Source: a virus
Taxonomy: Duplodnaviria > Caudoviricetes
Virus record (IMG/VR): IMGVR_UViG_3300031992_000016
Coordinates: 104,961 to 168,960 of that record
Strand: one strand, 5' to 3'
Length of the DNA stretch: 64,000 nucleotides
Shown here: positions 36,001 through 62,498 of the stretch, one piece after another
Position numbering within the stretch: the first letter of the stretch is position 1
Layout: the number at the start of each line of letters is the position of its first letter
Translations under genes and position numbers: made by a program
The notes under the pieces: model-generated
Told to the model about the DNA's origin: nothing
Database searches by the model: none
Seen by the model: the letters and a program-made list of their open reading frames with translations, nothing else

Positions 36001-39000
36001 GTGAAACCAATTGTTTTGCTTTTTGTTGCAATTTTTGTTCTTCATCTTTCCATTTAGCTTCTGCATCATCTTGAACTTTTTGTTCATAAGCCTTCCAAAT
36101 TTCCTAATCAGTTAATTTATCTTTATTATCTGGATTGGCAATATAATTATCTCTAAAAGCTGCGTAATCATATAATGTACTATACTTTTGATGATCCGCA
36201 TCAGTACCACCTAACAAGCTATCTAAAACATCTGTAATAGATGTATCTTCAGAAATTTTTCCAATAGCATTTTGAATTTCATCTAAAATACTTCGTGCAA
36301 TTTTATCTCCTAAACCATCAACATTTGGCTCCCAACCAGCAATAGACTATGACAAACCAACTTGTAGACCTTGGATTAAGAATGGAGCCAAAGCCATAGT
36401 TAGTTTTGATGGTGATGCAATACCAAGAGCATGAGCAAATGCTGCAATAATTTCATTACCAATTGGCGCAAAATACGCTGCCCAATCTACATCTGTATTT
36501 TGTAATCCAACAATTAAGCCATCCATTAAATGCATAGCTAATGACGCCGTTGCGGAATCAGAAGATTGAGATGCTTCATCTAATGCTCTAAAATAATTAT
36601 TTAAAACATCAGGTGCCAAATCTTTAAAATCATCTGGAGACATGGCTAAAATTTTATTATACATAAGTTGAGCCTTATATTTTTGTTCATTTGACCAAGT
36701 ATTATGGCTACCTTCAGCATTAAATTCGAACATAGCACTTTGTATATCTTGTATACTCTATAAATTATTATGTCGCTATCTAAAGTTTGTCACATGCTAT
36801 TTTTCATTATTAGCAATAAATGGTATATCAATTCCACCTAAATAAGAATACATTTTATCAAGATCTTCTGCGCCCTTTTGCTATAAATTGCTTTTATCCA
36901 TCAAAGCTTTAACTTTAACAAAATATTCTTGTCCTTGTAACTGTTGTTGAATAGTGTTATTTCCAAGACTCGCATCAGCTTTAACATGATATTCATTTGG
37001 TTTATCTTCTGCTCCATCAATTGCTCCCTATAATTCTGCAGCTAAAGTTACTTCTGTACCATTTGCTAATCTTACTTTAATTTCTTTGCCTTTTCCATCT
37101 GCTCCTTGTAATATTTGAGAAATTTGCGATTCAATAATACCAACATCTGTTTGAATTTTTAGTTTTCGTGGTTGACCATTTTCATCTGTTTCCATTTCCC
37201 ATGCGCTTATTTTAGATGCTAAATTAAATTCTTCGCCTTTATCATCAACGCAATTAATTTTAATATTATGACCAGTTGCATCAGTTTCATAACTTTTAAT
37301 CGTTGCCGCAAAATCTTCGTCATCTTTTCGAATTAAAATAGTTTTAGTGCCTGGAAGCATTAAAGCTGCGACCGTTACCGTAAAACCTAATGTATTACCT
37401 GCATTAATTGCAATTTTCTTTTCCTCTGGAACACTATCTAATAAAGTAGTATAAGTTACTTCAAAAGTGCCATTTTCGCCATCAAACATAATAGTTTTAT
37501 GGTCTGTAGTAATTGCTGTATTATATTTTGCAGTATAAGTACCAAATTCACCTTGGAAAGTAATAGTTTTATCTTCTCCTGCAATTGCTGTATCATATGT
37601 TGCAGTATAGGTACCAAATTCACCTTGGAAAGTAATAGTTTTATTTTCTGTAGCGGTTGCTTCTTTAACTGCAAAAGTATAAGTGCCACCATCACCTAAA
37701 AACGTAATCGTTTTATTCTCATTCATTATAGCTTCTTTTACTGTATCTGTATAAGTTCCAAATTCGCCCTAAAATATAATTGTTTTATTGTCATCTAAAG
37801 TTGCAGATGTATAAGCCGCCTAATAAGTTCCATCTTTAGCATAAAAAACAATATTCTTTTCTCCATCAATCTGTACAGCTTCTAATGAAGAAGTATATTC
37901 ACTACCTGTTTCACCAACAAATGTAATTATTTTTGAACCAGGATGACTTTCAATAGCAGCAATTGTATCACTGTATTCTTTATCATCAACAGAAAAAGTT
38001 ACTTGTCCATCAGGATGTAAATTAAAATTCTCAACTGCCTAAACTACTTCTTTACCATCAACGGTATAATAAACTTGACCATCTTGATAAAGCCAAGTCT
38101 AAATTTCATCTTCATTTTCCATCTCGGCTTCAACTTCAATTACACTATGGTCAACTGGAGTTGTATCTAATTCTGTTACTAATCCAACATATTCTTGTTG
38201 CCGTTTTTCTAAAGTACTTAATTGCATTAATGCTGCTTCTGTTGCGGCTACCATGCCAGCCTTAATTTGCTCTTTATCTCCATCAGCATTTTGAATATCT
38301 TCAATAATTTCTTTAACTCTTTCAGCTGCAACACCAGCTCTAATTAAAGATTGTTCTAATTCACCAATTGAAGAAAAAGATAAATTATCTAATGAAGTTA
38401 AATTTGATTGAATGAACTAAATCGCACTTTTAGCCGCGTTAATTTTTTCATCGTCCTAACTAGTTTGACTATCAACTCGAGACTATATTTGTTCCATACG
38501 CTAGTCATTTAATGCACGCTCTTGAGCTTCGATTTTTCTCTACTAAATTTGAACCTGAGTATCATCATATCCTTTTTCATCGCGCATGTTCTATAATTCT
38601 TCTAGCTTTTGTTTCATTTGTTCCAATCTATATGTTTCTCGTTCTAGATCAGACATTCCTAGCCATTCCTCAAATGAGGGAGTATCAGCCTTATTTAAGC
38701 CCAATAATAATTGATTCATTGCTAATTCAGTATCTTTCCATTTTGTCGGGTCTAATTCTGCACCAGATAACCATTCTAACTATTGCGATTTACCAGACGC
38801 AGTTTCAATAAATTTAGTTGCAGTTTGTAACGCCGTAGTAATATTAGTATATTCTGCTTCTTCATCACTTAAACTTGTTAATAATCCTCTAAAATCACTA
38901 TTGTTATTTACTGTACCTTTATAAGATATACCCCAATCATTCATATATGTACGTAAAATATCACTTGCAGAACCTGCAGTAGCATATTTGTCACCAAACA

Positions 39001-42000
39001 TAGCAAGCATAGTATTACGTGTATCTTCGTTGTTTAATAATTTTCCATTTTCATCTATGTTTTCTGATAAAAAACGCTAAAAAGTACGCTAATGCTCCCA
39101 TTGCTATTTAGCCTAATCAACATCTTCTACACCCATTCGTTCTTGCATAAAAGCATTCTATGAATCTGTAATAATAGTATTTAAATCTACCATTCCATCT
39201 TCATATTGTTGCCACCAATTATCATAACCTGTGCTTATTTGCTCCATTAAAGTCGCCATTTGTGCGGCTTTTTCAGAAGAAGACATTTTATTCCATTCTT
39301 GAGTATTAAAAATTTCTCCTAATCCTAATAAATCACTTACTATTGGTAGCTATGCCGCAAAACTATCTATATCAAATTCACCAGAATATCTATTACCCCA
39401 TTGAGCCAATAAGCCTGTTGCAGTTTGTGCTTTTGCTTGTTGCTATAATAATTGAGGAACTCGTTTGTCCATTAAATCACCATTATTATCTAAAAATGGT
39501 GCTATATTAGCCATATAAGACCAATCTTTATCAGTAAAACCCCACTGCTCTAATTTTTTCTACGCTTCTTCTTTTGTCATTTTTTTATTACGAGTTGTCA
39601 TTGCAGTTACAGCAGATTCTTTATTAGCAACCGTTGCATCTGCCGCAGCTATATCACTTTCTGATACACCGACTAATCCTCTGGCATAAGTAGTTACTAA
39701 TTGACTAGCTTGTTTTTTAGCTGCTCGAGTAATAGCATCATTTTTATTACTATCTATGCCCCAGTCTGCTAATAAACCTTCAACTAAACTCTCCTATACA
39801 TCAGAACTCCATCCTTCAACATTTTGTTGTTTTAGCCAATCCTAGCCTTTTAATTCTCTCATACTCTTAATAGCATTAAGATATGGAGAAATCATTTCAG
39901 TGATCATGTAATCAATATCTTCAAATGATTGATCATGTACTAAAGCTTCTAACTATGATTTCATTCCAGGGTCTTCAATAGTTTTTGCTGCTTCTTTAAT
40001 TGCTTGTAGCTAATTATAATAATGTAACAATGAATCTAAATCAGATTCAATAACTAAGTCATCGGCAGTTCGTGCCATCCCTGTTCCACCCGCGCGCGCA
40101 CTACCGCCTAAGAATGATTGAATCAAATTATTTTCTTGATCGCCTGTTGCATTACCACTAAGCCAATAATCATATTTTCGACTACCAGCATAATCAATAT
40201 TAATACCATATTGATTAGCTAACATATCTCTTATATTTGCATTCTATAAACTTTTTAATAAACCAGATTGTTTCATATTAGTATTAAATGAACTTAATAT
40301 GTCATTATAAACAACTCCGGTTTTATTCCCTTCATTATTATCTCTATATTTGTCTCCCATATTTTCTTTTGCTATTTTAGTAACCTAATTTTCTAAACCA
40401 TGTTCTGCGCGTCTAACATCAGATTCTGCAGTTTCAATTTGTTGTTCACGTGCAGCCTCAATAGATTCTTGAATAGCTGCAGTTAATCCTTGATAATTAC
40501 CAGTAAGTGCCATAACTGCAGCACCCTAAATGCCTAAACTAGATGCGATATCAGCTAAAGCACTACTATATTCTTGAACAGATAATGCACCTTCTGCAAA
40601 CTATTTGTTTAATGAGTCAAAAGCATTACTATTAGTCATTAATTCTTGATTTGATTGTTGATGTTCTTCTAAAATTTTATTTGTAGTTTCTGCCATTTTA
40701 ACCATTTCTTGTTCACGTTTTTCTTGCTAATCTTTCATATACGTAAATACACCAGCAATTGCCATACCAGCCGCTTGAATGCCTGCCATCAATGGTCCTT
40801 GTGTTGCAAATGTATTAAGTAATGAACCACCTGCACTAACAATAGAAGTTACACCTGCTAATGTATCACCACTTTCAAATGACTTCATAATACCTTGCAT
40901 AGAAGTAAAACCTTGAACTGCAGCCATGGCTCCTTCTGCAACTGTTGCCAAACCCTTAGACAATTTTTGAGCTGCAGCTTCACGAGCATTCAATGCTTGC
41001 TCTTCTTCATCTTCCATATCAAAGCCTGCAGTAATCTCTTCTTGGCCTACCTAACGACCATATTCCTAAGCTCTATGAGCAGAATCTTCACCAACAATGC
41101 TACGCATTTCCTGATAAGCTTCATCTAAGTCATCATCAATTTGATCACGTAAATGCTCTGCAATAACTCTTCCACGATCAGCTTTAGTAGCTTGATTTTG
41201 TTCATTAAAACCAGCACTTTCAAGCCAATCATTCATTTCATTTTCGTCTTGCGGTAAAAAATCACGTACTGCTTGAGCCATTGGATTATTCTCATCCATC
41301 ATAACAGACTCAAAACGCTCTGCAGCCGCTGTACTATCTGTGTCCTCATTAAAAATTTGATCTATCTATTGATTTACTGCACCACGTAAAGCATTTCCTC
41401 TAGCTTCTTCTTGTACTCTATTACCTAATCCACGTATCGCTGTATTTTGTACATTCTTATCATCTGATTTAAAATCTGCTACCATGTCATCAAGATCACT
41501 ACCACTATAACCCTGATCAGCATAATAATTTAAAGCATTAATATAAGCATCATCACGTAATTTATCAGCAGTACCTGTACCTTCTAATTCAACTAAAGAA
41601 CCAATTGATAATTCTCTACGAGCTTCATCTGTAATATTGGCTAAATTAGTTTCATGACCTGCCATGGTTTGCTAACGCTAATTTAAATAATCAATATGCT
41701 ATTGTAAACGCGCAGCTTCTTGTCCACTCATATGCCCTTGTCGTAATAATAATTCTTGTTTAGCTATCGCACTTTCACTTCTTGCGTCTGCACTTAATAA
41801 ACGCATTGTATTTGCAGTATTTGCACTTGTATCTGGTGTTAATTCACTTTCTCGTCTATCTAAAGCGCTATTATATTCCATATCTGCCGATCTACGTAAA
41901 GTTGTTAGATTATCAAATAAATTTCGCTATTGAGTGCCTTGTGCAAATTTTTGAGCACCATACTAAGAAATTGCTTGCATCCTTCCGCCATAATTATTTG

Positions 42001-43681
42001 AATTATTTTGCATATAAGCATTAAATTTTCTATAAGTAGGAATACCACCAATTGGATGCCCTTCTGAGCCTTTTGCTGCTTTCATGTTGCCCCATGCAGT
42101 CCGCAACGTACCACCTTTGCCAAAGAAATTTCCAAATGCCATGCTAATACCTGTTAATTTATCTAACATCTATGGTTTAAATGCAGTCATCATCATCTAA
42201 GAAATTTTTGCTAATATACCAGGGATACCTCCAAGACCATTAACTAAACCTCTAACTGCAGATAACGCTGTTGCCAATGCATTATTAAATCCAACAAGGA
42301 ATTTATCATTAATTAAATCACCGAAAATAGCTTCTTTACTTGCTTGTACTCTTTGTTTAGATGCTTTAACAGAATCTTCATAAATTTTCTGCATTTTTTC
42401 TAAGCTGCCAGCTGAATTTTGAGCATTTTGCAAATCTTTTTGATACGTATCCCAGTTTTCAAATAATGCCATTAATTGCGTATATTGACGTTTACCAGCA
42501 ACAACCTGCGCGATAGCAGTTTTTTGCGCACTGCCCATGGTCTACCATTTATTACCAAGATCAGTAATAACATCGCCCATATCACGCATATTACCAGTAG
42601 CATCTAAAACCTATACACCAATAGAATTTAATGAGCTTGAAACTTTACCTAAATTAACACCGTCTTCTAATGTTTCACCTAATTTTAAGTCACCCATACG
42701 TGCTAAAATAGTTTTAAAAGATGTACCAATTGATTCAGCACTTTCACGAGTAACAGAAGATACAGTTGCAACAATAGAAGACATTTGTTCCATACCGACA
42801 CCAACAGTACTAGCAGTCGCGGCAACTTTCTATAAAGCTGTTGCAATTTCTTCCATGCTAGTAGCAGTAGTAGAACCTAATTTTGCCATTACATCTACAT
42901 AACCTTCAAGCTAATCACCGCCTGCTTTATAAGAATTCCAAACGGCGGTTAGCATTTCTGACATTTCCGCAGCATTAGCTTTGAATGCAGTATTTGCAGC
43001 CTTTAAAGTAATTTGTGCTTTCTTTTGTACATCTCTATCATTATCACCCTATTGATAATAAATTAATGCTGCATCAGCATATGCTTTTGTTGATGTACTT
43101 AAACTTTTTGCCATTACATTTGCTTCTTTTGCAAAATTGCTCATATCAGAAATAGATTTGCCAGTAACAACACGAATATTATTTAATGAAGTATTTAAAT
43201 TTTCAATATAGCTAACTGCTCCACTCATAGCAGACTATAAGCCATGAACCATTTGACTAGCTGCTTGCCATTTCACAGTATTCATTAAAGTTGTGCCAAA
43301 CTATGCAATAAGACCAGTCGCTTTTTGCGCGGGAATAGTTGCCTAAGTTAGAACAGAAGACAACTATGAAATTGCCTATTGTCCAGTTGTACCGGCGCGC
43401 TAGAAACTGGCAATTAACGTTTGAACATTTGTATTAGCACTCGCCAAGCTATTACTTAATGCACTAAAATTAATTTGCCCAGTATTAACATTAACTGCCT
43501 ATTGTAATGCCTACTATAATTTTGCTGCTTGCTACGCGGCATCTGCCATATTTGTATCAATTTTTAAATTTAATCTACTGTTTTGCTGCAATCTTTGTAA
43601 TGAAGAACTTAATTGTTCAACCTACCGCTATGCAGCACTGGCATCAGCCTAAATATTAATTTTATACTATACACCAGCCAC
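30023..43681 (-). CDS. Tail tape measure protein (4552 aa); TAG=Gln
   Basis: About 19 track ORFs lie in one frame. GTG start with SD GAAAGGAG; TAA at 30023. Tape-measure core motifs (ESAESIGTSFKTILARM, VAGKRQYTQLMAL), LGIASPSK, and C-terminal GYASGGLVDYTGPAWVDG and LE*NVHISAEFPNA. Confidence 0.88.
37450..37935 (-). repeat. About 7 tandem 24-aa (72-bp) repeats inside the tape measure gene, consensus KTITFQGEFGTYTA
   Basis: gtaccaaattcaccttggaaagtaatagtttta occurs at 37539 and 37611, with degenerate copies on both sides. Confidence 0.8.
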
Positions 43682-45602: not shown

Positions 45603-45641
45603 AAAAAAAATGGGGACGAGCTTTTTTGCTCGTCCCCATTT
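45603..45641 (-). terminator. Rho-independent terminator after tail tube gene
   Basis: aaatggggacgagc-tttttt-gctcgtccccattt followed by a long T-run on the minus strand. Confidence 0.85.
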
Positions 45642-45656: not shown

Positions 45657-46739
45657 TTATTCACCAAAACGCTTTGGAGGTTCCTTACCAGAATCTTCAT
45701 AAATGTCGCCTGGGAATTTAGTATCACCCTCAACTGCGCCACGAGTTGAACCATCATAAAGTGCAGTATCTTCAACAATCTGAAGAGCAGCAATTACTTT
45801 CTTGGTCTTATCAAACTTAGTATAGTCTGGGAAAGCATCCATTGTGAAAGTAAAGGTAGAAGGATCACCAGTAGGTGCCATTGTGAAGGTAAAGTTAGAC
45901 TGAACCTTGCAGTTAGGAATGATAAATTCAGCAGGATAGTCTTCACCAGTTGCTTCATCACGGAACAAAGTAGAAGCTTCAAGATAATAAGAACCACCGA
46001 ACTTACCAGCTTCAATATCAATCTGCTTTACATACTGAGTGCTCTTTACATAATAGTCAATATAAAGAACAGAACCTGGATCATCGCCCATGCCATTAAC
46101 GTAGTCATATACTTCCTGTGGATTCTTAGCATCCTTATAAGCATCTACGTTTGCTTGGAACTCAGTGCCAATAGGAGCATGAGCATCCATGATCTTACCA
46201 GCGACCAATAATTCATTATGAGCAGCATTATAAGCAGCAGCCCAATGAGCAAAGATTTCTTCAACGTTCATTTCCTTAGCAATATCATCACGTTGAATTT
46301 CCATAGGAATACGATTGGTATTAATAGAACCATCAGCATTCTTCAACATAATATACATGCTACCACCCTTGGCTGGCTCATGAGCAAGAGTAATCTTACC
46401 TGCTTTAATCTGAACCTGCTCAGTAGTATGTACATAAATAGGATGATCTTCATCAGCATCCATGAAACCAGCACCAGAAAGAATTGAGAAGCTTTCTGGA
46501 CTAATCAAAGCATCTTCCATTGTAAATGTTACAGTACGGTCGCCTTCCCAAGCTACCAAGCGAGGATTACCTTTACCGCCCTGAGCATAAACAGTTGTGC
46601 TCTGGCCTTCCAAAGAAGAAGTCTTCAATGTTTCAAAATATAACACAGGCATATCCTTGTCAAGATACAACTTACCGAAGAAACCTGCTGCCTTACGACG
46701 AAGTACAACATCGCAAATTTCGCGTACGCCAAATCTCAT
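45657..46739 (-). CDS. Major tail (tube) protein (360 aa); TAG-free
   Basis: The true start is MRFGVREICDVV after SD AAGGAGG. Motifs VYAQGGKGNPRLVAWEG and FTMAPTGDPSTFTFTMDA; followed by a strong terminator. Confidence 0.75.
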   Translation of the reverse strand: MRFGVREICDVVLRRKAAGFFGKLYLDKDMPVLYFETLKTSSLEGQSTTVYAQGGKGNPRLVAWEGDRTVTFTMEDALISPESFSILSGAGFMDADEDHPIYVHTTEQVQIKAGKITLAHEPAKGGSMYIMLKNADGSINTNRIPMEIQRDDIAKEMNVEEIFAHWAAAYNAAHNELLVAGKIMDAHAPIGTEFQANVDAYKDAKNPQEVYDYVNGMGDDPGSVLYIDYYVKSTQYVKQIDIEAGKFGGSYYLEASTLFRDEATGEDYPAEFIIPNCKVQSNFTFTMAPTGDPSTFTFTMDAFPDYTKFDKTKKVIAALQIVEDTALYDGSTRGAVEGDTKFPGDIYEDSGKEPPKRFGE

Positions 46740-46756
46740 ATGCGTTTCCTCCTTAA

Positions 46757-47515
46757 TTAATGTAAACTTTTCATCCAATCGTCTGGTTTACTGTCGGGTT
46801 TTCCGCCAGCCAAACGTGATCTTATATCTAAATCCCACCCGACATATAAGCCGTATCTCTCAATCAAATCATAGAGCTGATAGACCGTAAGATTAAGGCA
46901 ATCATCCAGACTCATGGATTCCAGAGCAATGGTGAGAATAGAAACATATCTAGATAAAACACCATCATTACCACCCGAGCCTCTACGCCGAGCAGCTTCA
47001 CTACGACCCTTCATTAATTTCGCCGCAATTGCAGCAGCTTTATTACCTTTTGGATTATAATTTGAGTTCTAACCACCAGTCGCATTATTTAATCCACACA
47101 CTTCTGTTAGAATTGCTTGCACAGTATCAAAATTATTTTCATCAAGAGTAAAAGAATGTTTTGTCGTAGCGTTATTAAAAAAAACTCCCATAGGTAAAAA
47201 CTATGCAGTATATCCTGGGAAAAACAACATAAACAGTTGTTCGATGGTATTTTTCCGCTTCCCCGAATCCTAAATATTCGGGTTAGCTACTAATGTCATA
47301 AATATCTAAAAATTATTAAGGGCGGCTAAACTAGAAGCGCCCTATCCTGTCTAAGATGCTAAAAGCACTTTTCGATTAAAACACACTAACTATAAGGCTA
47401 AAAAATATTCTTCTTCACCAATTAATGCAATTTCCGCGATTTTAGGCTAGTGGATTGTAGTCTATAACTCAACTACTGGGATATTAGTCCCAGCCATTAA
47501 AGCTAATGAATTCAT
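46757..47515 (-). CDS. Hypothetical tail-module protein (252 aa); TAG=Gln
   Basis: ATGA overlap with the upstream gene; MNSLALMAGTNIPVVEL*TTIH*PKIAEIALIGE; in frame with track ORF 46757-47014. Confidence 0.75.
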
Positions 47516-48045
47516 AATAATGGGTTCCGCTAATCTTCTTCTCCGTGAATAGCTTCATAAGTTAAACATAAACCCATCAACTAATCATTAAGTAAAAGAT
47601 TGCGCCCAGTTAAGAATTGAGTTTCCCCAATTCCAGTTAATTTTTTCTTATTGAAAAGACTATCAATTTCACCAGCAATCTTATAAGGACGTAACTAAAA
47701 ATTGCCTAAATTCCAATGATCAGGATGACAAAGAATGTCAAATTCAATAATACAATCTCGATACACTGGATTCTTTTTATTTGGCTAAAAATTATCCATT
47801 GAAATTAATACGTAATTAGGACACTCAGTAGAAACTTCTAGCTAAGGAACTATACGTATCTACTTATGAATCATAGAATATTTTTGTTCTTGTGTTAAAT
47901 CATTTGCTTTTAAACAATCTTTTTCAGTATAATAAAGTAATTTCATTAAACGTTGATCTTCCATCATTTTTTGAATAATCAACGCCAAATCTTTATCGAC
48001 CGCCAAGAAACTTGATTTAGGAAAATAATCTTGCCCAACAATCAT
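47512..48045 (-). CDS. Putative tail terminator/completion protein (177 aa); TAG=Gln
   Basis: SD AAAGGAGGAG; reads through six TAGs to TGA at 47512; lies between neck and tail tube genes. Confidence 0.65.
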
Positions 48046-48062
48046 ATTAACTCCTCCTTTAA

Positions 48063-49028
48063 TTAAAACAATGATTCAACAACAATAGTTTTATGTAAAT
48101 CTTCAATTAGCATATCATTATGAAATACAATTTCAAATTCACCACTAACCATTGGCAACCATTTTACAATTAAACCATTATCTTGTTCATCTACTCGCCA
48201 TTCAACTACATCATCAATATCTTTATTCTAAGATGTTGATACTACTGACCAGTCACCGCGAATACGACGATTTACATTATATTTAACTTCCTATCTTGGC
48301 TTAATAAATACTTCACCATCAATAGAAACATCAAATATATTCTGCTTAGGAGGATTAGGATCGGTAGGCTCAATTATATATTCATCTCCATGACATTCAT
48401 AATCTTCTTCTGCGACTATTTCTAAAATACCGGGTGTACTAATACTGTCAGGAGCCTGAACTTTCCAATATCTACCTTCAAATTCAAAGCGTTGATAACG
48501 TTCTAGCGCACGTATTGTTTCCTCAGTGCGTTTTACATATATGTCAAGAGTTAAATTAGGTACATCAGCAGCAATACCGTGCTTTTGAATTGTATTAATT
48601 TTAGTTTCAACAGGCCCGCGCACAGCCATCCATAAACCAAATTTTTCTTTAGTTTCTGGATCAGTAACTTCAACCCACTAGGCTCTGCGGCAATTTCCTC
48701 TAAAATATGCCAATTCAGTTAATTCTTGTTTGAGTATTAGCCAATGAATACCAGACTCTTTTGGCCATTCAAAACTATCTCCTGGCTTAAAATCATATCG
48801 CCAATCAACAGAGATAATCTTTTCATCATAGTCAAATTTTACTTTATCAGGATTAATTAATGCTAATACCCATTCACTGTCTTCTTCATCTTTTTTAATC
48901 CAAGCATGTTGATAAGAATAAAGAAGCGCACGATGGAATGAACGTCTTTTATCTCGAACCATGCGGTCATGTTGGCGGTCATTAACCGCGGCACGTGCGC
49001 GAGCGCGCAAATTATCTAGTGCGTCCAT
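48063..49028 (-). CDS. Putative head-closure/head-tail joining protein (321 aa); TAG=Gln
   Basis: Two track ORFs in frame; ends KTIVVESLF-TAA; product inferred from gene order. Confidence 0.65.
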
Positions 49029-49341
49029 CTAACTAATTCGCTAAATCAGTTAATAGTGAAATTGCACTAAAAACTGTTTTGCGATATATCATAAAATCGG
49101 CTTCGTCAAGCAGACCATACAATTCAGTAACAAATACTAAAAAGTCTAATTCACCGCCAAATATTTTGTCTAACCCACGAAGTTCAAGTAATACAGTTTT
49201 AATCTATCCTTGCCAATCCTCTTGATTTTCACGCATCGGCAATAATTTCCAAATCTGATTGACCAGACGACGCAAATCGGTCACTACAACACCTGGTTCA
49301 AATTTGAACTCAGTTGTTTCTGATTGCTTCCCACTTGCCAT
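49012..49341 (-). CDS. Hypothetical neck-region protein (about 109 aa), absent from ORF track; TAG=Gln
   Basis: RLVNQIWKLLPMRENQEDWQG*IKTVLLELRGL; fills the gap between neighbours; start uncertain because the SD is weak. Confidence 0.65.
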
Positions 49342-49891
49342 AATCAATACCATTATCGCTATCTGCGTCGCCAGATCCTTCATGAATAATCTTAACAGTA
49401 CCAGCTAATGCAGCTTCTTCTTGCTTTGGAATAGCACTATCATTAAGCATATGCCAATTAGACATAACATGTCCAGTTTCTGGTACAATTTTACGCCGCT
49501 TATATAAACGTTGTGCGTGAATATTCTCGCGCCACACCTCAGTCTTTAAATTTAAAAGCTTCGCAAGATGATTAGCTTGCGAAGTAAATTTAAAATCTGA
49601 ACCGCTATATTTCATGCGTGTATTTTCAATAGAAGAAATCTGTCGGTCCAACCATACGACTTTCATTAAAATAGCGAAAATATTAATTTCTTCTCTGGTT
49701 AAATCAACATTGTATTGCTCTTGATCTGCGTCATAATCATATAGAGCAAATCTTGGAAATTCAAAGTAGGATATGGCATCTAATAGAATCTATTTACAAT
49801 CACGAATAGTATCTTCCTCAGTCAATTCCAAATACTAATCATCTGTAATTTTACCAAGGAAGGCATTATAAATAGTTTCAAATGATGTCAT
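49310..49891 (-). CDS. Putative head-tail adaptor (193 aa); TAG=Gln
   Basis: ATG 49891 with SD AAGGGGGAG; MTSFETIYNAFLGKITDD*YLELT; DFKFTSQANHLAKL; TGA stop. Confidence 0.68.
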
Positions 49892-49892
49892 A

Positions 49893-50492
49893 TTACTCCC
49901 CCTTTGCCTCTTCTTTCTGCACTACTTTATACTGAGGAGTAGTGCGGCGACCACTAGTTTTAGTTTCGGCCTATACTCTACGGGTAGGTGCAGCCTTTAC
50001 TTCCATACCACTATCAGTAGTATTTGCTTCTTCAGCCTGCGCAGCTTCAACTTCTGCCTTATGCTGCAAAGCAAGCGTTATATCAAAACCAGTCTTTGCT
50101 TTAAGAGCTTCGCGCTTACGCGCATCATTGCAAGGCAATTCATAAGAATATTTCTTGATTAAATCTATTACACCATCAGGCGCAAAATCAAGGCAATCAA
50201 GGAATGCTTCAACGCTACCATTTTGAATTAAATCAATAACGCCTTTTTCATCCAAATAATATTCAGGTTCAATCCGAATAGGCATTTCCTTCACTACTTC
50301 TGTATCTTCAATAAATAGACTATCACGAAGCATTACAGTACCACCTGGAACAAAACTTAAAGCATCCAACTCTTCACGAGTAAGATTTTTTACTTCGCCA
50401 GGCTACCATTCGCGGCGAATGCCCATATCTGGAATCGTATAAATAAGCATTCTACTACTGCGATTACGCACTTTAATTTTATTGTCTGCCAT
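49893..50492 (-). CDS. Hypothetical protein after major capsid gene (199 aa); TAG=Gln
   Basis: ATG 50492 with SD AAAGGAG; TAGs at 50403 (RREW*PGE) and 49971; TAA at 49893. Confidence 0.78.
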
Positions 50493-50520
50493 ATTTTTTT
50501 ACTCCTTTTTCTCTTAAATT

Positions 50521-50545
50521 AGGACCGCCGCACTGGCGGCGGCCC
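50521..50545 (-). terminator. GC-rich hairpin after major capsid gene (weak U-tract)
   Basis: Minus strand reads agggccgccgc-cagt-gcggcggtcct, then aattt. Confidence 0.6.
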
Positions 50546-50558
50546 TTATATATGATTA

Positions 50559-51614
50559 TTAATCGCCCGTTTCATTTGCAGAACGTGTAACATTCAATTG
50601 ACCTTTAAGAGCATCGTCGATATATACGCAGATGTCTGGAGTCATAACAACACCAACGCCTACTTTCTTATAGACCTGAATTTCACGGCTGCGATCCTTA
50701 TTGACATATTCATCAACAATAGTGCTACCTTCCATAACAACCTTGGCAGGCTTTACAGCACCTGGAAGAATATAGCAATAACCTGGGTCAATAACCTTTG
50801 TCTGATGAGTTGCATCAGTGAAGCCCTGTGGAAGAATAGTAATAGGATGATTCTTATAAGAAGCAAAACGACCATTATTCCAAATAGTATCCTTCATATT
50901 GTCAGAATACATAGCAGCATTAGCAGGACGAATCTTAGAAGCAAATTCTTCAGTGCAATAAATGGTAGGAGTACCATAAGCTGCAGCGATAGAAATTAAA
51001 CGATCAAATGCTGCTTCATCCCAACCAGTAACTTCAGCAGTATTAAGAGCTGGAAGCTGATTCAAACCAGTCTTCAAAGCCTGACCGATTTCCCAATAAA
51101 TGAGTTCGTCAAGACCTTCCATAACAATACGAGTTACCTCAGCAAAATCAGCACGACCATCAAGGAACTCTTCCAAACCAATCTGAGCGGCACCGCCGAT
51201 AGCACTGGTCTGTACTTCGATAGGCGTATCTTTACCAAGCTTAAATACTTCGTAAATACCAGCCAAACCGACCTTGGTGATGAACTGCTTTGCACGCTGA
51301 CGATCATGCCAACGCATAAAGATAGCCTTGTCACCCTGAGCCATGGTCTTTACTTCGGCAAACTTGCCATATTCCTGCTCAACTTTACGAGGAAGAACAT
51401 CATCCATGGTCTGTTCGATTAATTCAAAGATAGTATTCTTATTTTCACGATAAAGAGCAAAAGTGCCTGCATACTCATTGAGTTCTTTACGAAGGGTCTC
51501 ATTGAGTGCATCATAGGTGAGATTCTCACCATTAAATGAATATGCAACAGGAGCAGAGCGATCGGCCTTAGCTGTTGCCTTCATCAATTGAAGAAGTTCT
51601 TTCTTATCCAACAT
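50559..51614 (-). CDS. Major capsid protein (351 aa); TAG-free
   Basis: Size and position after the protease and head protein genes. Motifs ALYRENKNTIFELIE and AIGGAAQIGLEEFLDG; strongly biased codons; SD AAAGGAG. Confidence 0.8.
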   Translation of the reverse strand: MLDKKELLQLMKATAKADRSAPVAYSFNGENLTYDALNETLRKELNEYAGTFALYRENKNTIFELIEQTMDDVLPRKVEQEYGKFAEVKTMAQGDKAIFMRWHDRQRAKQFITKVGLAGIYEVFKLGKDTPIEVQTSAIGGAAQIGLEEFLDGRADFAEVTRIVMEGLDELIYWEIGQALKTGLNQLPALNTAEVTGWDEAAFDRLISIAAAYGTPTIYCTEEFASKIRPANAAMYSDNMKDTIWNNGRFASYKNHPITILPQGFTDATHQTKVIDPGYCYILPGAVKPAKVVMEGSTIVDEYVNKDRSREIQVYKKVGVGVVMTPDICVYIDDALKGQLNVTRSANETGD

Positions 51615-51634
51615 TGTCAATCTCTCCTTTCCTA

Positions 51635-52384
51635 TTACTGAAGTCTCATAATTTTAACAGCTGGTTGCATATCGCCAAGATTATAAACCTTAACTACCTG
51701 CCATACCATACCAGCAGGAAGAGCAGGAGCATTTTCACCACTAGGAGCGGTAACCTTAACAAGATAACCATCTTCGCCTGGGGCCAAAAGATCACCACGA
51801 GCTAAAGAACCTGGATCTGCTTTAATGCAGTTAGTAGTAAAAATATCACCCTCATGAGTCTTAAAGAGACGAGGTACCATAATACCCTGGGTATCAGTAA
51901 AGAGCTGTGGCTGATTTAATACTTCAACTTCATACTTGTTACCAATAGCAAAATGATTACGACCAAAATCTTCACCAGGATAGGTTTCGGTATGTCCATC
52001 TGGATAAATCTCACTATTAGCACCAATAGTCTTCATCAAAGGATTAAGATCAACATTATTAGCACCGGTTACACCAACTGGGCTATAAACAGAGCCGGTA
52101 TAGTCACGACGGATCATTGCGAAGTCCTGATCGGTTTCGCCCTTGGCATAAACCTTTACTTCGTTATAAACTAACATCCACTCGCCCTTGCCGGTAAAAT
52201 TGACTACATTATTAGCATAGTCATACTTTGCAAACTGACCATTCTCAAGAATCTTAATATTCTTAGCTGCTGGCAACTGTGCATAAATCTCGCCAGTGCG
52301 CTGTGCAGACAAATGGTTAGGTTCAACCTGACCGAAGCCATAAGTTACATAAGTGGCTACCGGTGAAAGTCTTTTAAAAGCCAT
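51635..52384 (-). CDS. Head structural/decoration protein (249 aa); TAG-free
   Basis: Intact ORF between protease and major capsid genes; GQVEPNHLSAQRTG motif; SD AAAGGAGG. Confidence 0.65.
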   Translation of the reverse strand: MAFKRLSPVATYVTYGFGQVEPNHLSAQRTGEIYAQLPAAKNIKILENGQFAKYDYANNVVNFTGKGEWMLVYNEVKVYAKGETDQDFAMIRRDYTGSVYSPVGVTGANNVDLNPLMKTIGANSEIYPDGHTETYPGEDFGRNHFAIGNKYEVEVLNQPQLFTDTQGIMVPRLFKTHEGDIFTTNCIKADPGSLARGDLLAPGEDGYLVKVTAPSGENAPALPAGMVWQVVKVYNLGDMQPAVKIMRLQ

Positions 52385-52405
52385 TGTAGCTTCCTCCTTT
52401 ATTTA

Positions 52406-53743
52406 TTACATATTTTTGGCGGTTTCGCGCACGGCCTTAATCCAGGCAGGAGCGTTATCTGACTCGCCCGTTTCATCTAAATTGAAAGTGAAGTCTTTTT
52501 CAGGCTTCTTTTCAGTATCAAGGTCGAAACTTACCTTGTTACGAACACAAAGAATACATAATTTAGCTTCAATATCGTCCAAAGAATATTCATCAATCTT
52601 TGAAACTACATCAGCCTTATCGGCATCTGTAAGCATATAGAAACTATCAATCATGTCTTGCTTAGCCTTGCGATCGGCATCAGCCTTGAACTTGCGCAAT
52701 GGCTCAAGTTCAGCAGTAAGAGAATTTACCTGCTCTTGAAGAGAAGCGAACTGTGATTGAAGATCCTTGTAAAGTTCAGACTCAGTAATCTCTTCATCAG
52801 AAAGAGAATGCTTGGTCTTTTTCTTCTTTTTATCTTCGTCTTCATCATCTTCTGGTTCAGACTTGTCATCCTCACCATCGCCTTTATCAGATGCGGGCTT
52901 GTCTTCTTCCTTCTTCTTTTCATCAGAAGGATCTTCGCCTTTATCTTCTGGCTTGTCCTCGTTTTCTTCCTCGTCCTTGGGCTTCTTCTTAAATTCAGTA
53001 TCATCGTCCAAGGGGAGGTTCTCTTCAACAGGAGGATTTAATTTTTCATTCTCATTGTCCATGTGAGCATTTCCTCCTTTTTCCAGCATTGCTTTAATTT
53101 CCCCGACCATAGCATACATTGTCTGCTTAAAGTCATCATCTAGGGAGAATGTTGCAGCAATTCCGGCGCCTTCAAAGCAAGGTTCGCAATCCTCACCGAG
53201 AATGCAAAGTTTGGAAATTACTGCCTCATTGATTATAAAAAATTCAGGCCATCCATTATCGTCAAATGACCAATCTCCGTTAGTAAGACTTTCATCTAAC
53301 TCCATTGATTGATTATTCCCATTTGTTAAAATACGCTTAGATTCTGGATATGCCCCAGTCCAAATCCACCCTTCGGTCATTAGATACTCATGATCTACGC
53401 CATCATCAGTGAATGTTTGAAACCATACTTTTGCGTTCATATCTACAAATCCATAAGGACGTGTAGTATCAACAATTCTTATGCCATCGCCACGAATTTC
53501 TAAGTTCTTATTATGCTGCTCAAAATCATCTTTGTTTTCATTATAAAAACCAACGATTGGGCAGCCCGGCAAAGACTTAGCCATTTCAGTCGCAACAGCC
53601 TTGGTGATAACACTACCATTGCGGTTAGGTTCATCACCCACATAACATACTTTAATTTCACAATGTGAAATTAAAGGATTAACGGGAGTAAAATTCAATA
53701 ATGAAATTGTATTTTCCCGCGGTATGCTTATATGACGAGCCAT
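52406..53743 (-). CDS. Prohead protease/scaffold fusion (445 aa); TAG-free
   Basis: N-terminal NRNGSVI..H..QSMEL..LCILG..EPCFEGA protease-like motifs, then an acidic linker and a C-terminal coiled coil. Confidence 0.72.
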   Translation of the reverse strand: MARHISIPRENTISLLNFTPVNPLISHCEIKVCYVGDEPNRNGSVITKAVATEMAKSLPGCPIVGFYNENKDDFEQHNKNLEIRGDGIRIVDTTRPYGFVDMNAKVWFQTFTDDGVDHEYLMTEGWIWTGAYPESKRILTNGNNQSMELDESLTNGDWSFDDNGWPEFFIINEAVISKLCILGEDCEPCFEGAGIAATFSLDDDFKQTMYAMVGEIKAMLEKGGNAHMDNENEKLNPPVEENLPLDDDTEFKKKPKDEEENEDKPEDKGEDPSDEKKKEEDKPASDKGDGEDDKSEPEDDEDEDKKKKKTKHSLSDEEITESELYKDLQSQFASLQEQVNSLTAELEPLRKFKADADRKAKQDMIDSFYMLTDADKADVVSKIDEYSLDDIEAKLCILCVRNKVSFDLDTEKKPEKDFTFNLDETGESDNAPAWIKAVRETAKNM

Positions 53744-53755: not shown

Positions 53756-55357
53756 TTAACCTTGTGAATTCTTATTAGCGATAGTTTTATCTGATTTTTC
53801 ACTATCAGCTTTTTCTGGTCGCCCACCTGTATTACTATCAGATTTGGCCGTTTTACTCTAACTTACTTCGCCCGCAGTTTTACCACTAGAACCAACTGCT
53901 TTACCAGACATAGTAGAAGACATCATTGGCGGTATCATAATATCAGACAAATGAAGTATCTCATTCTCGAAATGAGCAGTAGCTAAAATAGAACTCTGCC
54001 GTTGTCCCATAGCAACAAGAGGTAACATTTTAGAATAACCAATCTGCACTAATTCTTTATAGAATTTCGCAACTTCTTGGTAATTATAAATGGTAGTTTC
54101 TAACATATAGCTGCGGAAACTATACCGTTTATTTGGGGGACACTTTTTAGTTATCATTTTATTAAGGAAGGCTTCATACTGTAACAATAAGTTACGCATA
54201 GTGGCTTCATCGTTTAAAATAGATGATTGCAAAGCGATGTTTCCATCACTATTGAATAAATTTTGTGAAACACCAAATTCATTATAGACTTGTCTCTCAA
54301 TCTTCTCCAAACCATCCGCCGCGGCAGCAGTGCTATTTGAGTCAGCCATATCTGCAACATCAACGTCCGCAAAGGTAGTTAATACATCAACACCGACCGC
54401 ACGTTTTAACATACTAACTGCATTATTATGAATATCACGTGCTTCATCAACGTCGAATATTAAATCACCATTTTTATCAAGAGGCAATTTCTAAATCAAT
54501 ACTTTTAATAACTATTGCATGGTCTTACGACGGTCTAAATCCTGCGCCTAGTCTAAATCAATTAATGTAGGAATAGAATTAACCAAAATTGGCATATCCG
54601 ACCCATTTAAATTAAATTTAAACGCGGCAGCTGTATCCAACAAATACCAACCTTCACTATCACCAATGCCATCGCCCATTAGCTTATGCCGCTTATATAA
54701 TAAATATCCTTCTTGGAAATCTTCTGGGAACATTTTCAAAATCTTCATACGATAAACCGCATCAGGAAATTTATCATCAAAGAAGCGCATATTAAATTCA
54801 ATAGCCGGCATCCCAGCTTTAAAATAGCGACTGCGGCAATAATCAGTTGGTAGCTCTTGAATTGTCATACAGTCTTTGGTATCAACCCAATAACCATAAT
54901 AACAACCATCTCGAATAACCTTTAATGCAATATCGCCAAATACTTTTTTGAGATTAGAATTATCTAAATAAGTAAGTATTCGCGCAAATTCTGTCAGCAC
55001 TTTATCTTCTTTTAATTTATCATCTTCGATAATATATGGCGTAACATAATAATCATAACGATAAAGGAAGGCGAAGTATTTACATAAACGTTCATAAATA
55101 CCAGATATATCATAGAAATATTGTGATACTAAACGTTGAGTTGCATAATCTTTTTGCGCGAGTGCTTTTAAAATAAAATTCTTATCTGCATAAGTACGAT
55201 TGTTTTTCTTTAATGAGCCAAGGTCCAATATAGCATCTTCCAAATTTTGTAAGCCGACTTTAATTTTACGGAAGTCTATACTGTCATAATGAGGTGCGAC
55301 AACTGGCTCAGACATAGAAAATCCTTTGGCTTTAATTTCATCCTAATTTCTTGGCAA
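53756..55357 (-). CDS. Portal protein (533 aa); TAG=Gln
   Basis: TTG start after SD AAGGAGGTG; TAGs at 55343, 54548, 54512, 54491, 53858. C-terminal GGRPEK motif; size and position between terminase and protease genes. Confidence 0.8.
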
Positions 55358-55370: not shown

Positions 55371-55727
55371 TTAGTATCCAGCTTTTTTCATAATATAATC
55401 ATAACTTAACAAATGTTCTTCTGTATAAGGAATTTCTATTAATTTATATCCATTCAAAGCACAAAAACGTCGTTTTAAATTATCATTATACTACTGTTGG
55501 AAAAATCCTTTTTTACCACCATATTTGGCAGAAGGCTAATAATGCTATTTTCCTTGATACTCTATTAAAAAATCTATTTCTCCATCATCATCAAATACAC
55601 AAAAATCAAATTTTAATGGTCTTCCACTTGTACTTACTAATCCTGCAAATTGCTGCTCCATAGTAAAATTAGCATCAGCTGCTTCTAGGATTTCGCGGAT
55701 AGTAATTTCTCCTCTACTTGCATTCAT
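55371..55727 (-). CDS. PD-(D/E)XK (Vsr/DUF559-like) endonuclease (118 aa); TAG=Gln
   Basis: LKFDF..LIEYQGK*HY..DNLKRRFC..LIEIPY; TAGs at 55545, 55536, 55491; TAA at 55371. Confidence 0.72.
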
Positions 55728-55731
55728 ATCT

Positions 55732-57468
55732 TTAACTCCCCTCAGTAAAAAACATCATATCACTAAGTCGCCCACGCTTACGTTTTTTACTATCCTCTTC
55801 CTACTTAATGTAGTATAATCCGTATTCAAATGCTGAAAACTTATCCTTGCGGATAGTATTATTTGCACGCTTTAAAATGATATTAACACCTTCATTTTCT
55901 TCGCGCAAATTCATCATTTCTTCTTTCAATATGGAAGTCAAAGTAAATGGTTTAAGATATTCTGCCCTTTCTTCGGGTTTCATCTCTTGTCCGCGTTTTG
56001 TTCCCATTAATTTATTTTTAGCAGCTCGCTCACTAATTAACATTTTTACACGCCCTGATGATAACTGAGTTTGTGCATTTGCGTGAGCCTCAGTGTTAAT
56101 AGGCGCATTTGCTTTAATTAAATAAAGTGCATCATACTCGCAATTATTAGTTTGATACTTTTTATAATAATTATCTTCATCATTATAAACACCAAAATCT
56201 GGGTATGTATCATTTGTGTCTGGATCTACTTGACCTTTAATCATATAATCGACTAGACCAATACCCAAACCGTTAGCATCAATTACTATACGCTTAGCTT
56301 TAAATTTATAATATAATTTCTTTAAATAAATTGCCTAATCTTCAAAGTGTTCATCTGACATTGTAAAAATATTTACTAATGTTTTAATAGATGCGCCAGC
56401 ACTTTGCGGCGTTACTTTAAATACACAAACAACAGAATCACAACCTTTGCGGCCAACATCAACAGAGAGTACATAATATGCTGTACTACGAGAACGTCCA
56501 GAATACTCATACTCTGGCTAATTTAATTTACGATTACGTTCAAATTGTTCGCTATTGAAGAAAGCATCTTCAACTGTGCCAGACCATTTAGACTCATACT
56601 CTCTATCAAAAGATGACTCATTAAATGTACCATCCATTTTTAAGTCTTTAATAAATGACTTAGAAAGCAAGCCCATGATAACTGGGATGCGCCAGGTTCC
56701 GCCCATAATAAATGCTTTATCTGGGTCGATAATCTATTGTACCAATAGCGTCATCAACTTATCGTAAGCAAATGTATTCTTCCATCCTGCTGTTGTAATA
56801 TATAATTGTGATTTATTTAAAGTTTCCTCTTCGCGCACCTCGCCGCTAGCGCAACGTCGCGCAACGTTCATTGTAGGAATTATAACTTCGTTTAAGATTG
56901 TACCATCAACACCAACGCACTCTTCAACAACACCGGCATGACGACGCTTACCACGCGAGGTATCTCTTGCCGCAATATTGTCAAACCAAGAGCCATTGTA
57001 AAAAACGTATTTACAGTAGTCTTTGCCTTCCATTGTTTTTCCTCGGCGGAAATCAATTTCGTGCGCGAAAGCTGGTATTAATGTACAAATTTCAGAAACT
57101 TTTTCTTTCATAATGCCGCTGGCCTGCTCTTTACCGCCAGAGGTAACGAATAAATGCGCACCTGGGTACAAGATACAACGAATAATAAGTATCATAACGG
57201 CTAAGAATGATTTAGAATAAGCACGAGGGAATACTGCATACACGTATTTTTTACGCATCGCCGCACGCATGAACACTCTTTGGTAATAAAATAACTAAAA
57301 ATTATTAGGATTACCAAATTGTAGCATAAAATCTACAAATAAATCTGGGTATTCACGCCAAAAAGCAACATATTGGCGCGCGATGGGTATAATAGCCCTT
57401 ACGCGCTCCTCAGATAATCCTATTTTATTTAAATCATTGCGCAAATTGAGTAAATCACTTAATGCCAT
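55732..57468 (-). CDS. terL: Terminase large subunit (578 aa); TAG=Gln
   Basis: Walker-A-like FPRAYSKSF, RGKRRH, Walker-B-like VVEE, YITTAG, nuclease SVDVGR and VIDANGLG, KDKFSA. TAGs at 57295, 56734, 56518, 56335, 55801. Confidence 0.88.
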
Positions 57469-58651: not shown

Positions 58652-59722
58652 TTAAGTCGCCTTCTTTCGGTTCTTAGCGTTGCGGCACTCCTTGCAGATA
58701 GAATACCATCCATCTTTTGAAGTGTTATTTACCGAAAAATAACGTTGATGTGCTAACTTAATTTGCCCACAGCGACTACACCGCTTCCACTTGCCCTTTT
58801 CCACGAACGTATAGTGCCACATCAAAAATTCATCTTGGGCGTATTGCGCGATGAGTTTAGGGATTTTATTGCGCCATAAAGACGAGATATATTCAACTGA
58901 GTGGGTGGTGCCGAATTCTTTTTCTAGTTGCGCCTTAATTTCTTCATTGGAGAAGTAAGACATTTTACATTCAGCGATGCGGCGATACATAGGAAATTTA
59001 TCAAGAGCCGCCGCATAATAGCGGTCGAAATCCTAGATGGTCGCCCACAGGTCAGTTTGCATATGATCCCAAACTTTATCTTTAATTTTGTGATAGTTGC
59101 ACATAATTGCGGAAATAACTTTGTAGTCACATAAAGAAATACCGCTCCAGCGCACCCCTTTTGTCTAAGGGTCAATCCACTCATCAAAGGGCAGCGTAAT
59201 TGGGAACCGAGTGCCACTATTCACATTCGTAAATTTAATGGGCGTCTTGTATGCGTTTTTGATTAAATACTAATCTTTCCGCATCTCGATCAATGTGCGC
59301 TTAATGATGTAAGCGTCACGCCCAGTTGCGACTTTCTACTTGGCTTCCCAGCGCTTTATTCCTTCTCTAAGTTCGCGCAAGAACGGTATTGTATCTACGT
59401 CTTCCTGAGTTATCATTACTTTTGGTTGAAAAATTACATTTTTATTATTTTCTACTAATAAATTATATACACCATCTTCGCCGTTCTCAAATTGCCCGAC
59501 CAACCCCTCAAATGAGGTTTCGCGTTTAGTTATAGTTGCCATGCGGTTCTCGGTGAGGAGGCGGCGCTATTTGCGTTCTTCTTTTTCCATACAGAGAACT
59601 AGGTAATCGGCCAATGCTTCAAGATACTGCGGAGTTGGGTCTTCCACTTCGGAGAGTATCTATTCAACTAATTTTAAACGCTCTTCTGGAGCTTCAATAG
59701 TATAGTCTAATTTTGTTGCCAT
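58652..59722 (-). CDS. Putative DNA-binding protein with HTH-like region and C-terminal Zn finger (356 aa); TAG=Gln
   Basis: ATG 59722 with SD GAAAGGAG; TAGs at 59660, 59567, 59336, 59270, 59033; CSRC..CKEC; TAA at 58652. Confidence 0.72.
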
Positions 59723-61468: not shown

Positions 61469-61669
61469 ATGATGTACGAACTGGTTCTCACCTATGACGA
61501 TGGAGCGATGAAGAAAGAAACTGCCAAACTGCCGAACCTGATGAGCGCATTGGGCATCTACATGGAGGACGACAGCTGGTGCTACGCACAGATAACGAAC
61601 TGCCAGACTGGCGAGGTCATCGCCATCTGGGAGAACAACAGCGAGTATGGTGTCACAACTGCGGGCTGA
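61469..61669 (+). CDS. Early hypothetical protein (66 aa)
   Basis: Own promoter, SD GAGGAG, TGA stop. Confidence 0.75.
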   Translation: MMYELVLTYDDGAMKKETAKLPNLMSALGIYMEDDSWCYAQITNCQTGEVIAIWENNSEYGVTTAG

Positions 61670-61688
61670 CCGAAAGGCCAGCCTTTTT
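61664..61688 (+). terminator. Rho-independent terminator
   Basis: ggctgacc-gaaa-ggccagcc-ttttt. Confidence 0.65.
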
Positions 61689-61861
61689 CCTTTCGCCGGC
61701 GCGCGCACGAACGTTTGCGCGCCGAATTCGCGCACAACTATACCCAGCACAATTCACGCGCCAAAAAGTGCAGAAAAAAAATTGCAAAAAATTTTCCTAA
61801 AACTATTGACAAGCTCGGCACGGTATGCTATAATAAGTACAACAAAGCAAGGGAGGACACG

Positions 61862-62173: not shown

Positions 62174-62250
62174 AAAAGTTTTAAAAAGTGCTTGACAACA
62201 ACAGCCAAACGTGATATAATTAAGCCATCAAAGAGAGGGAGGACGACACC

Positions 62251-62436: not shown

Positions 62437-62498
62437 CCCTTGACAAATAGAACCAACGGTGCTATAATAGAGACATCAAAAGACAGGGAGGCGAAACG

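Follow-up and report, generated by a model that had tools for sequence, protein, structure and literature searches.

Absence of TAG codons from the capsid, decoration, tail tube, and protease/scaffold genes of a TAG-recoded siphophage points to ordinary translational selection

The stretch of DNA analyzed here (the window, 64,000 bases) comprises bases 104961–168960 of the 168,960-bp genome IMGVR_UViG_3300031992_000016, and all coordinates refer to the window unless they are marked "genome". It is the late half of a 169-kb gut siphophage genome related to phAss-1, and a 127-bp overlap between the genome ends indicates a circular assembly. The late block consists of 38 genes, which were read with TAG as glutamine (Gln). 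Four of these genes, encoding a protease/scaffold protein, a decoration protein, the major capsid protein, and the tail tube protein, contain no TAG at all. They are listed below with the sizes of their products in amino acids (aa).

52406–53743, minus strand: probable prohead protease with a scaffold-like helical C-terminal region (445 aa; 0 of 9 Gln codons are TAG; phrog_3313)
51635–52384, minus strand: predicted capsid decoration/cement protein (249 aa; 0 of 11 Gln codons are TAG, with CAG 10 and CAA 1; phrog_35301)
50559–51620, minus strand: major capsid protein (353 aa; 0 of 14 Gln codons are TAG, with CAG 12 and CAA 2; phrog_4088)
45657–46739, minus strand: major tail (tube) protein (360 aa; 0 of 11 Gln codons are TAG; phrog_2729, virion structural protein)

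The genes around them that carry TAG are the following.

55732–57468, minus strand: terminase large subunit (TerL) (5 of 18 Gln codons are TAG; phrog_15503/24618/5909)
53756–55357, minus strand: portal (5 of 22 Gln codons are TAG; phrog_2739, E 7e-89), ending 12 nt before the protease start
46757–50492, minus strand: six head-completion/neck genes between the capsid and tube genes (2–9 TAG each)
30023–43681, minus strand: tape measure (4552 aa; 103 of 351 Gln codons are TAG)

We compared the use of TAG among the Gln-type codons of these genes. TAG accounted for none of the 45 Gln-type codons in the four genes, compared with 355 of 1,134 (31%) in the other 34 late genes, and 19.6 TAG codons were expected in the four genes on a per-codon count. 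A binomial test of the TAG share among Gln codons, as proposed in the initial annotation of this DNA, gave a P(0) of 4.6e-8 across the four genes, and Fisher's test gave 1.2e-7; both P values concern genes that were chosen after looking, and that belong to the class expected beforehand to be the most heavily made. The initial annotation had described the protease/scaffold, a head protein, the capsid, and the tube as free of TAG and the flanking portal, terminase, neck, and tape measure genes as carrying it, and the counts above agree with this description. From TerL to the tape measure, all genes of at least 100 codons except these four contain TAG. The spelling of Gln differs accordingly: the four genes use 35 CAG and 10 CAA codons (CAG 78%), whereas their neighbors use 60% CAA, 31% TAG, and 9% CAG. 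A small number of Gln codons or the G+C content of third codon positions (GC3) had been named as explanations that could overturn the observation. The Gln count does not explain the absence of TAG, because 45 Gln codons are present, and GC3 does not explain it either, because TAG ends in G and the four genes have the higher GC3, which would favor TAG.

The reading of TAG as a sense codon is based on several features of the whole genome. The coding density increases from 75% under code 11 to 94% when TAG is treated as sense, and the portal, TerL, and tape measure genes are whole only under TAG read-through. In-frame TAG is abundant in the minus-strand block at 82–165 kb (genome), which holds the morphogenesis genes, and the plus-strand genes at ∼40–81 kb (genome) are nearly without it. 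The residues that face the TAG codons of this phage in standard-code orthologues are most often Gln (24.5%, 5.7-fold enriched), followed by Glu (2.2-fold), and because Gln is the top residue, the assignment of TAG to Gln is well supported. An array of 33 tRNA genes at genome 26–39 kb includes tRNA(CUA), tRNA-Gln(CUG), and tRNA-Gln(UUG), the first of which is the suppressor.

Genome 37355–37447: suppressor tRNA(cta) (93 nt; found with ARAGORN; Rfam tRNA model, 55.8 bits)

The suppressor tRNA(CUA) has an unpaired A1/C72 mismatch and G73, which we take to be Gln-like features, its anticodon stem is similar to that of the phage tRNA-Gln(CUG), and its variable region contains a long hairpin. Such a long variable arm is unusual for a Gln tRNA. 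Directly after the suppressor tRNA lies a weak match to YrlA, a Y RNA-like element (32 bits, E 3e-4, below the gathering score; L005:17466–17572), and further beyond it is a TAG-free, strongly codon-optimized gene with DUF2828 and DUF7788 domains (L006:3627–5159). Glutamine insertion at TAG has been demonstrated for crAss-like phages only (Peters et al., 2022; PMC9523058). The recoding of this phage from TAG to Gln (code 15) is well supported, with the insertion of Gln itself being a prediction. Outside the late block, in-frame TAG was also found at genome 14000–14671 (minus strand, 8 TAG), 39978–41120 (plus strand, 5 TAG), and 61470–62477 (plus strand, 3 TAG), which means that recoding is not strictly limited to the morphogenesis module.

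We assigned the products of the four TAG-free genes by synteny, sequence comparison, and structural modeling. No Pfam domain was found above threshold in any of the four, even at E up to 5. The protease/scaffold gene occupies the position of the "putative prohead protease" of Bacillus phage PJN02. Its structural model was of low confidence (pLDDT, the predicted local distance difference test, of 54) and shows a beta domain at the N-terminus that a disordered linker separates from long helices at the C-terminus; its best Foldseek matches were weak and included the human cytomegalovirus protease and T4 gp21 (E 0.02–0.1). In the Foldseek search against the PDB, there was no match at E ≤ 0.001 for the protease or the decoration model, and a profile search of solved structures with the protease alignment returned coiled-coil or acidic low-complexity matches only. 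As there was no significant Foldseek match, the protease assignment rests on synteny, the weak fold matches, and the architecture, and a protease with a scaffold-like tail is a plausible prediction for this product. The 249-aa product, which the initial annotation had labeled a head protein, is more precisely a decoration protein, and not a scaffold, as judged from its model (predicted template modeling score 0.69, beta structure): the top 13 VIA-align matches were all auxiliary capsid proteins with decoration, cement, or stabilizing roles. The best of these was the capsid-stabilizing protein of TW1 (Z 8.4, root-mean-square deviation 3.5 Å over 127 residues), followed by the proteins of Borrelia phage BB1, Sf11, FCWL1, and others. 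The major capsid protein was identified by tblastn, which matched it to proteins annotated as such in Bacillus phages PJN02 and Kirov and to phAss-1 at 50% identity, and synteny also supports it. The tube protein has a match in Bacillus phage Thrax5, the "major tail protein", and lies in the position of the "tail tube protein" in PJN02; its open reading frame, 45657–46778, is 373 aa long, and the likely start is the ATG at 46739 behind AAGGAGG, which gives 360 aa.

The codon usage of the same four genes deviates far beyond Gln. Compared with the other late genes, 14 of 18 amino acids differed at p < 0.05, most strongly Lys, Leu, Gln, Ala, Thr, and Ile. For Lys, AAG makes up 75% of the codons in the four genes and 19% in the other late genes (p 4e-40); for Leu, TTA falls to 18% from 67%, with CTT and TTG raised (p 2e-30); and for Ala, GCT is at 62% vs. 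37% and GCG at 1% vs. 15%. The codons ACC (Thr), ATC (Ile), and TGC (Cys) are also increased, and ATA, AGA, GGA, and CGA are decreased. Since T-ending codons (GCT, CGT, CTT, and TCT) are favored and the G+C-rich GCG is avoided, this pattern reflects codon selection and not a plain shift in GC3 or composition. We also calculated a log-odds codon score that was built without the Gln codons. By this score the four genes are at the top of the genome, together with a handful of TAG-free, CAG-rich plus-strand genes, and across 28 other late genes the score was negatively correlated with the TAG share (Spearman −0.64, p 3e-4). With a simpler bias index, which averages the AAG share of Lys codons and the share of Leu codons other than TTA, a logistic fit of the TAG share (slope chi2 19.8) predicted 8–11% TAG for the four genes, i.e., 4.0 expected TAG codons instead of ∼14. 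Low TAG shares were also found in two other late genes, 799–8844 (minus strand; 7 of 98) and the gene ending at 475 (1 of 26); both have relatively many CAG codons and intermediate codon scores.

To place the pattern among relatives, we retrieved 79 IMG/VR loci via the capsid protein, at 49–85% identity and with up to 10 kb of flank each. We identified orthologues of 18 window genes by running blastp on stop-to-stop frames and counted TAG in the aligned segments only. Many of the relatives use the standard code, and 18 dereplicated recoded loci were used for the pooled counts. In a quick capsid tree with SH-aLRT (Shimodaira–Hasegawa-like approximate likelihood ratio test) support, recoded loci occurred on at least four branches: the clade of this phage with L029, L033/L034, L035, and L050; phAss-1 with L075, a join that is a long-branch pair; L071 with L086; and L056. 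In the 18 recoded loci, TAG made up 7 of 569 Gln-type codons (1.2%) in the decoration, capsid, and tube genes, 25 of 192 (13%) in the protease gene, and 785 of 2,720 (29%) in the other late genes; this gradient follows presumed copy numbers, which were taken from the roles of the proteins. The high-copy group (decoration, capsid, and tube) was depleted in 15 of the 18 loci (Fisher p < 0.05). By family, with the window added, the TAG share was 0.5% for decoration, 1.3% for capsid, 2.2% for tube, 4.6% for the gene after the capsid gene, 12.5% for the protease, and 13–51% for the remaining families. The TAG share of the 18 gene families over the recoded relatives was strongly and negatively related to the Gln-independent index (Spearman −0.83, p 2e-5). 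Conservation in related recoded phages, which the initial annotation had suggested checking, was thus confirmed for the decoration, capsid, and tube genes. In the protease gene, most recoded relatives differ from this phage in carrying TAG, and one lineage has TAG in its capsid gene.

This lineage, L050, has 3 TAG codons in the capsid gene, all aligned with Gln in other sequences, 1 in the decoration gene, 1 in the tube gene, and 4 in the protease gene. The codon bias of its high-copy genes is weak (AAG 30%, TTA 64%), and these genes are still poorer in TAG (5 of 30) than the rest (71 of 181, p 0.02). In L035, the high-copy genes prefer CAA and contain no TAG in 17 Gln-type codons, vs. 16 of 27 in the other late genes, so the avoidance of TAG is not a by-product of a preference for CAG. 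The TAG positions in the portal, TerL, and one neck gene were mostly lineage-specific and swapped with CAA or CAG; in the portal, 33 of 62 TAG columns were singletons across the lineages, and the portal genes of the recoded loci L021, L031, L034, and L056 had only 0–2 TAG. The lineages L030/L031 and L021 were barely recoded (in L031, 9 TAG among 170 Gln codons, in low-copy late genes), and L030/L031 adjoin a TAG-free sister, L032. These lineages look like an early or a receding stage of recoding.

Relatives with the standard code also optimize the codons of the decoration, capsid, and tube genes, and they do so in two opposite directions. The preference is for AAG/CAG in L043, L051, L055, L063, and L065, whereas in L036–L049 (L043 aside), L053, L058, and others it is for AAA/CAA/TTA, at near 100% and beyond that of the neighboring genes. 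For example, the high-copy genes of L039 have AAG at 2% and TTA at 97%, and in Enterococcus phage VRE9_2, AAG makes up 0–4% of Lys codons in the capsid and tube genes. These results indicate that strong codon selection on these genes is independent of recoding. The direction of the optimization presumably follows the host, and the two codon regimes are probably usable as a host signature; for the phAss-1 group, only Clostridia/Eubacteriales have been predicted as hosts.

Based on these results, we consider it likely that the absence of TAG from the capsid, decoration, tube, and protease/scaffold genes is the Gln part of ordinary translational selection. Each virion would require from hundreds to about a thousand copies of these proteins, and such a demand would lead selection to keep their codons at the preferred set for nearly every amino acid. 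TAG would not belong to this set, because it relies on one phage suppressor tRNA, which presumably competes with the host release factor 1. In low-copy late genes, TAG would drift in and out through changes between CAG/CAA and TAG under A+T pressure, and in high-copy genes it would be purged. We observed the depletion itself, the general codon bias, the graded relation between them, and their conservation in relatives; we infer from them that expression level and host-preferred codons underlie the bias and that termination or slow decoding makes TAG costly. One of the two alternatives offered in the initial annotation, in which TAG serves highly expressed genes poorly and a limiting suppressor tRNA is a possible cause, is favored in the wider form of general translational selection by the bias across many amino acids, by both Spearman correlations (−0.64 and −0.83), and by the gradient of 1.2, 13, and 29%. 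Several points weigh against this reading. The codons are called host-preferred from the direction and consistency of the bias, and the high expression of the TAG-free genes is deduced from the roles of their proteins. The tape measure, with its 103 TAG codons, must be made, so late suppression must be efficient; the cost per TAG would then be small and relevant only at very high expression. Moreover, the zero TAG in the four genes is still below the logistic expectation of 4.0 (P 0.015, in an extrapolation beyond the fitted range), and there may be a small extra effect beyond codon bias.

The alternatives to translational selection that treat the TAG content as a selected control device, by which the yield or timing of assembly initiators is tied to the level of suppressor tRNA in the form of a stoichiometry rheostat or a checkpoint, appear unlikely as a group. 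The other alternative of the initial annotation was a translational assembly checkpoint, in which the TAG-free bulk subunits accumulate before the suppressor tRNA is available and the TAG-bearing portal and terminase stay locked until the code switch. This would fit the abundant shell and tube proteins without TAG and the portal, TerL, neck, and tape measure genes with it. Each gene has its own ribosome-binding site, so that translation independent of the TAG-bearing upstream portal is possible in principle, and a role of recoding in the timing of late-gene expression has been proposed by Borges et al. (bioRxiv 10.1101/2021.08.26.457843). However, the genes form a co-directional run with spacers of 12 nt between portal and protease, 21 nt between protease and decoration, and 14 nt between decoration and capsid, and a promoter scan found 79 sigma-70-like sites against 65 expected by chance, which makes it uninformative on promoters before the protease, capsid, and tube genes. 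With such short spacers and no promoter match above chance, the mRNA should be shared with the TAG-bearing portal and TerL. The suppressor tRNA gene is located well away from the late block, in the tRNA array, where the plus-strand genes around it are largely TAG-free, and standard-code relatives show the same codon optimization with no code switch. The checkpoint is also hard to reconcile with the turnover of portal and TerL TAG positions between lineages, which do not resemble conserved locks, with the portals that have only 0–2 TAG, with the TAG in the capsid, decoration, and tube genes of L050, and with a tape measure whose 103 TAG codons imply efficient suppression when late proteins are made. 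In the assembly of tailed phages, capsid protein without a portal tends to form dead-end, portal-less shells, and an early accumulation of capsid protein is not obviously helpful for this reason. Because the shared run, the turnover of TAG, and L050 all speak against it and nothing supports it positively, we did not retain the idea that bulk subunits accumulate before the code switch, and we regard a checkpoint as clearly unlikely.

A second possibility of this kind is that positive selection keeps TAG in low-copy genes, where each TAG would attenuate translation and lower the yield somewhat, the whole acting as a rheostat of virion stoichiometry. The TAG share does climb as the presumed copy number drops (from 1.2% to 13% to 29%), and two families (c46757 and c47512) reach 40–51%, above the average, but purifying selection that scales with expression predicts the gradient equally well. 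In addition, most TAG positions are specific to a lineage and are taken by CAA or CAG elsewhere, as drift predicts, and the 103 TAG codons of the tape measure, at an average share, would be ruinous if each attenuated much; we find such a rheostat distinctly improbable. A recent horizontal acquisition of the head and tube genes from a standard-code phage with a higher G+C content, in which TAG has yet to accumulate, is suggested by the G+C content of the four genes (0.40–0.41 vs. 0.30–0.36) and by their GC3 above that of the neighbors. The shift, however, is toward specific codons (GCT, CGT, and CTT) and away from GCG, which is not a compositional offset, and the TAG-free state is found across relatives at 49–85% capsid identity, while the TAG positions of the neighboring genes have turned over. 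As the TAG-free state has outlasted the divergence of the capsid, we rejected recent transfer, which is very improbable. Chance or composition, i.e., few Gln codons or a GC3 effect with no selection, has next to no probability. Two small late genes are also TAG-free with a P(0) of 0.07–0.15, but in the four genes the joint P is ∼5e-8, their higher GC3 runs in the wrong direction, and the pattern is repeated in independent lineages; we rejected both explanations on the 0 of 45 count, the codon-specific bias, and this replication.

Several further features were found near these genes.

55371–55727, minus strand: homing endonuclease gene between TerL and portal (118 aa; 3 TAG; phrog_9084/559)
58652–59722, minus strand: gene matching a PHROG labeled "sigma factor" (6 TAG; phrog_5767, E 2e-47)
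59776–59748, minus strand: near-consensus sigma-70-like promoter, TTGACT-17-TATAAT, before the "sigma factor" gene
50527–50543, minus strand: G+C-rich hairpin downstream of the capsid gene, within a gap of 66 nt, with no clear minus-strand T run
45608–45641, minus strand: strong terminator-like hairpin with a T run (stem of 14 bp, including 8 G-C pairs), 16 nt downstream of the tube gene

The hairpins after the tube and capsid genes are the usual arrangement around heavily expressed structural genes, and the two genes after the tube gene contain 8 and 2 TAG. TerL has 33% identity to the terminase ATPase subunit of PJN02, and the N-terminus of the tape measure has 29% identity to the tape measure of Enterococcus phage VRE9_2. 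Tail length is usually ∼1.5 Å per tape measure residue; on this basis, the 4552-aa tape measure predicts a tail of ∼0.7 micrometers with on the order of a thousand tube subunits per virion. The homing endonuclease insertion between TerL and portal is present in nearly all relatives, including the standard-code VRE9_2. For the "sigma factor" gene, no Pfam support was found, even at E up to 5; should it encode a late sigma factor, this factor could itself be translated only with the suppressor tRNA.

Among named phages, phAss-1 (Babkin et al., 2023; PMC10607447) is the closest relative. It is a large gut siphophage with a tRNA array and tRNA-Sup(CTA), belongs to the proposed Phassvirus group, and is labeled "Caudoviricetes code 15 clade" at NCBI; standard-code siphophages of Enterococcus (EF1, VRE9), Bacillus, and Lactococcus are related more distantly. 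Both phAss-1 and the phage described here have the gene order portal, protease, small head protein, capsid, connectors, and tube, and in phAss-1 too, TerL, portal, and tape measure contain TAG, while the capsid and decoration-position genes are TAG-free (in the capsid gene, 0 TAG and 15 of 15 Gln codons are CAG). Babkin et al. did not comment on the avoidance of TAG. The two phages are distantly related, with genomes of 136 kb (phAss-1) and 169 kb, and the different capsid-tree clade, which contains IMG/VR contigs at 80–85% capsid identity to it, places the present phage outside the proposed Phassvirus genus. More generally, the recoded gut phages described by Borges et al. and Yutin et al. 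(2021; PMC7886860) share with it TAG read as Gln in structural and lysis genes, a phage suppressor tRNA(CUA), and replication genes largely without TAG. The Borges et al. preprint reported gene families enriched in recoded stops (lysis and some tail genes) and proposed a timing control of lysis and late genes, and it did not describe a depletion in major virion proteins. Yutin et al. noted one Zeta-group capsid gene without alternative coding and took TAG in the capsid, TerL, and portal genes of other phages as evidence of recoding.

A bias of phage head and tail genes to host-preferred codons, beyond GC3, was reported by Lucks et al. (2008; PMC2266997), and our results resemble it in that the high-copy head and tail genes are more codon-biased than the rest of the genome. 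The difference is that here one disfavored codon is a reassigned stop, so the bias leaves no TAG at all in these genes; in our case, a match to host-preferred codons is what the bias suggests. For a TAG-recoded Crassvirales phage of Segatella copri, the capsid gene was said to show "no alternative codon usage" (in the original, "shows no alternative codon usage"), and the authors considered capsid genes to be under pressure to match host translation (bioRxiv 10.64898/2026.08.21.746148). That was a single-genome remark without statistics on a podovirus-like crAss phage, whereas in the present siphophage the pattern extends over the capsid, decoration, and tube genes, is graded, and recurs in several lineages. 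Our results add another phage group and three to four gene families, the tail tube among them, together with a quantitative gradient and replication on several recoded branches.

Most likely, the pattern reflects ordinary selection rather than a special assembly switch, and it reveals no new mechanism. Since TAG is removed where the translation load is highest, amber suppression would come at a cost that is small yet real, late in infection as well. This is relevant to models of recoding as a regulator of late genes, because TAG density differs predictably between genes. In annotation, TAG-free, strongly biased genes within a recoded block can mark the major virion proteins, and their codon preferences may hint at the host. 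On this evidence, which comes both from single genomes and from the comparison of lineages, a reassigned stop codon is not fully equal to a sense codon.

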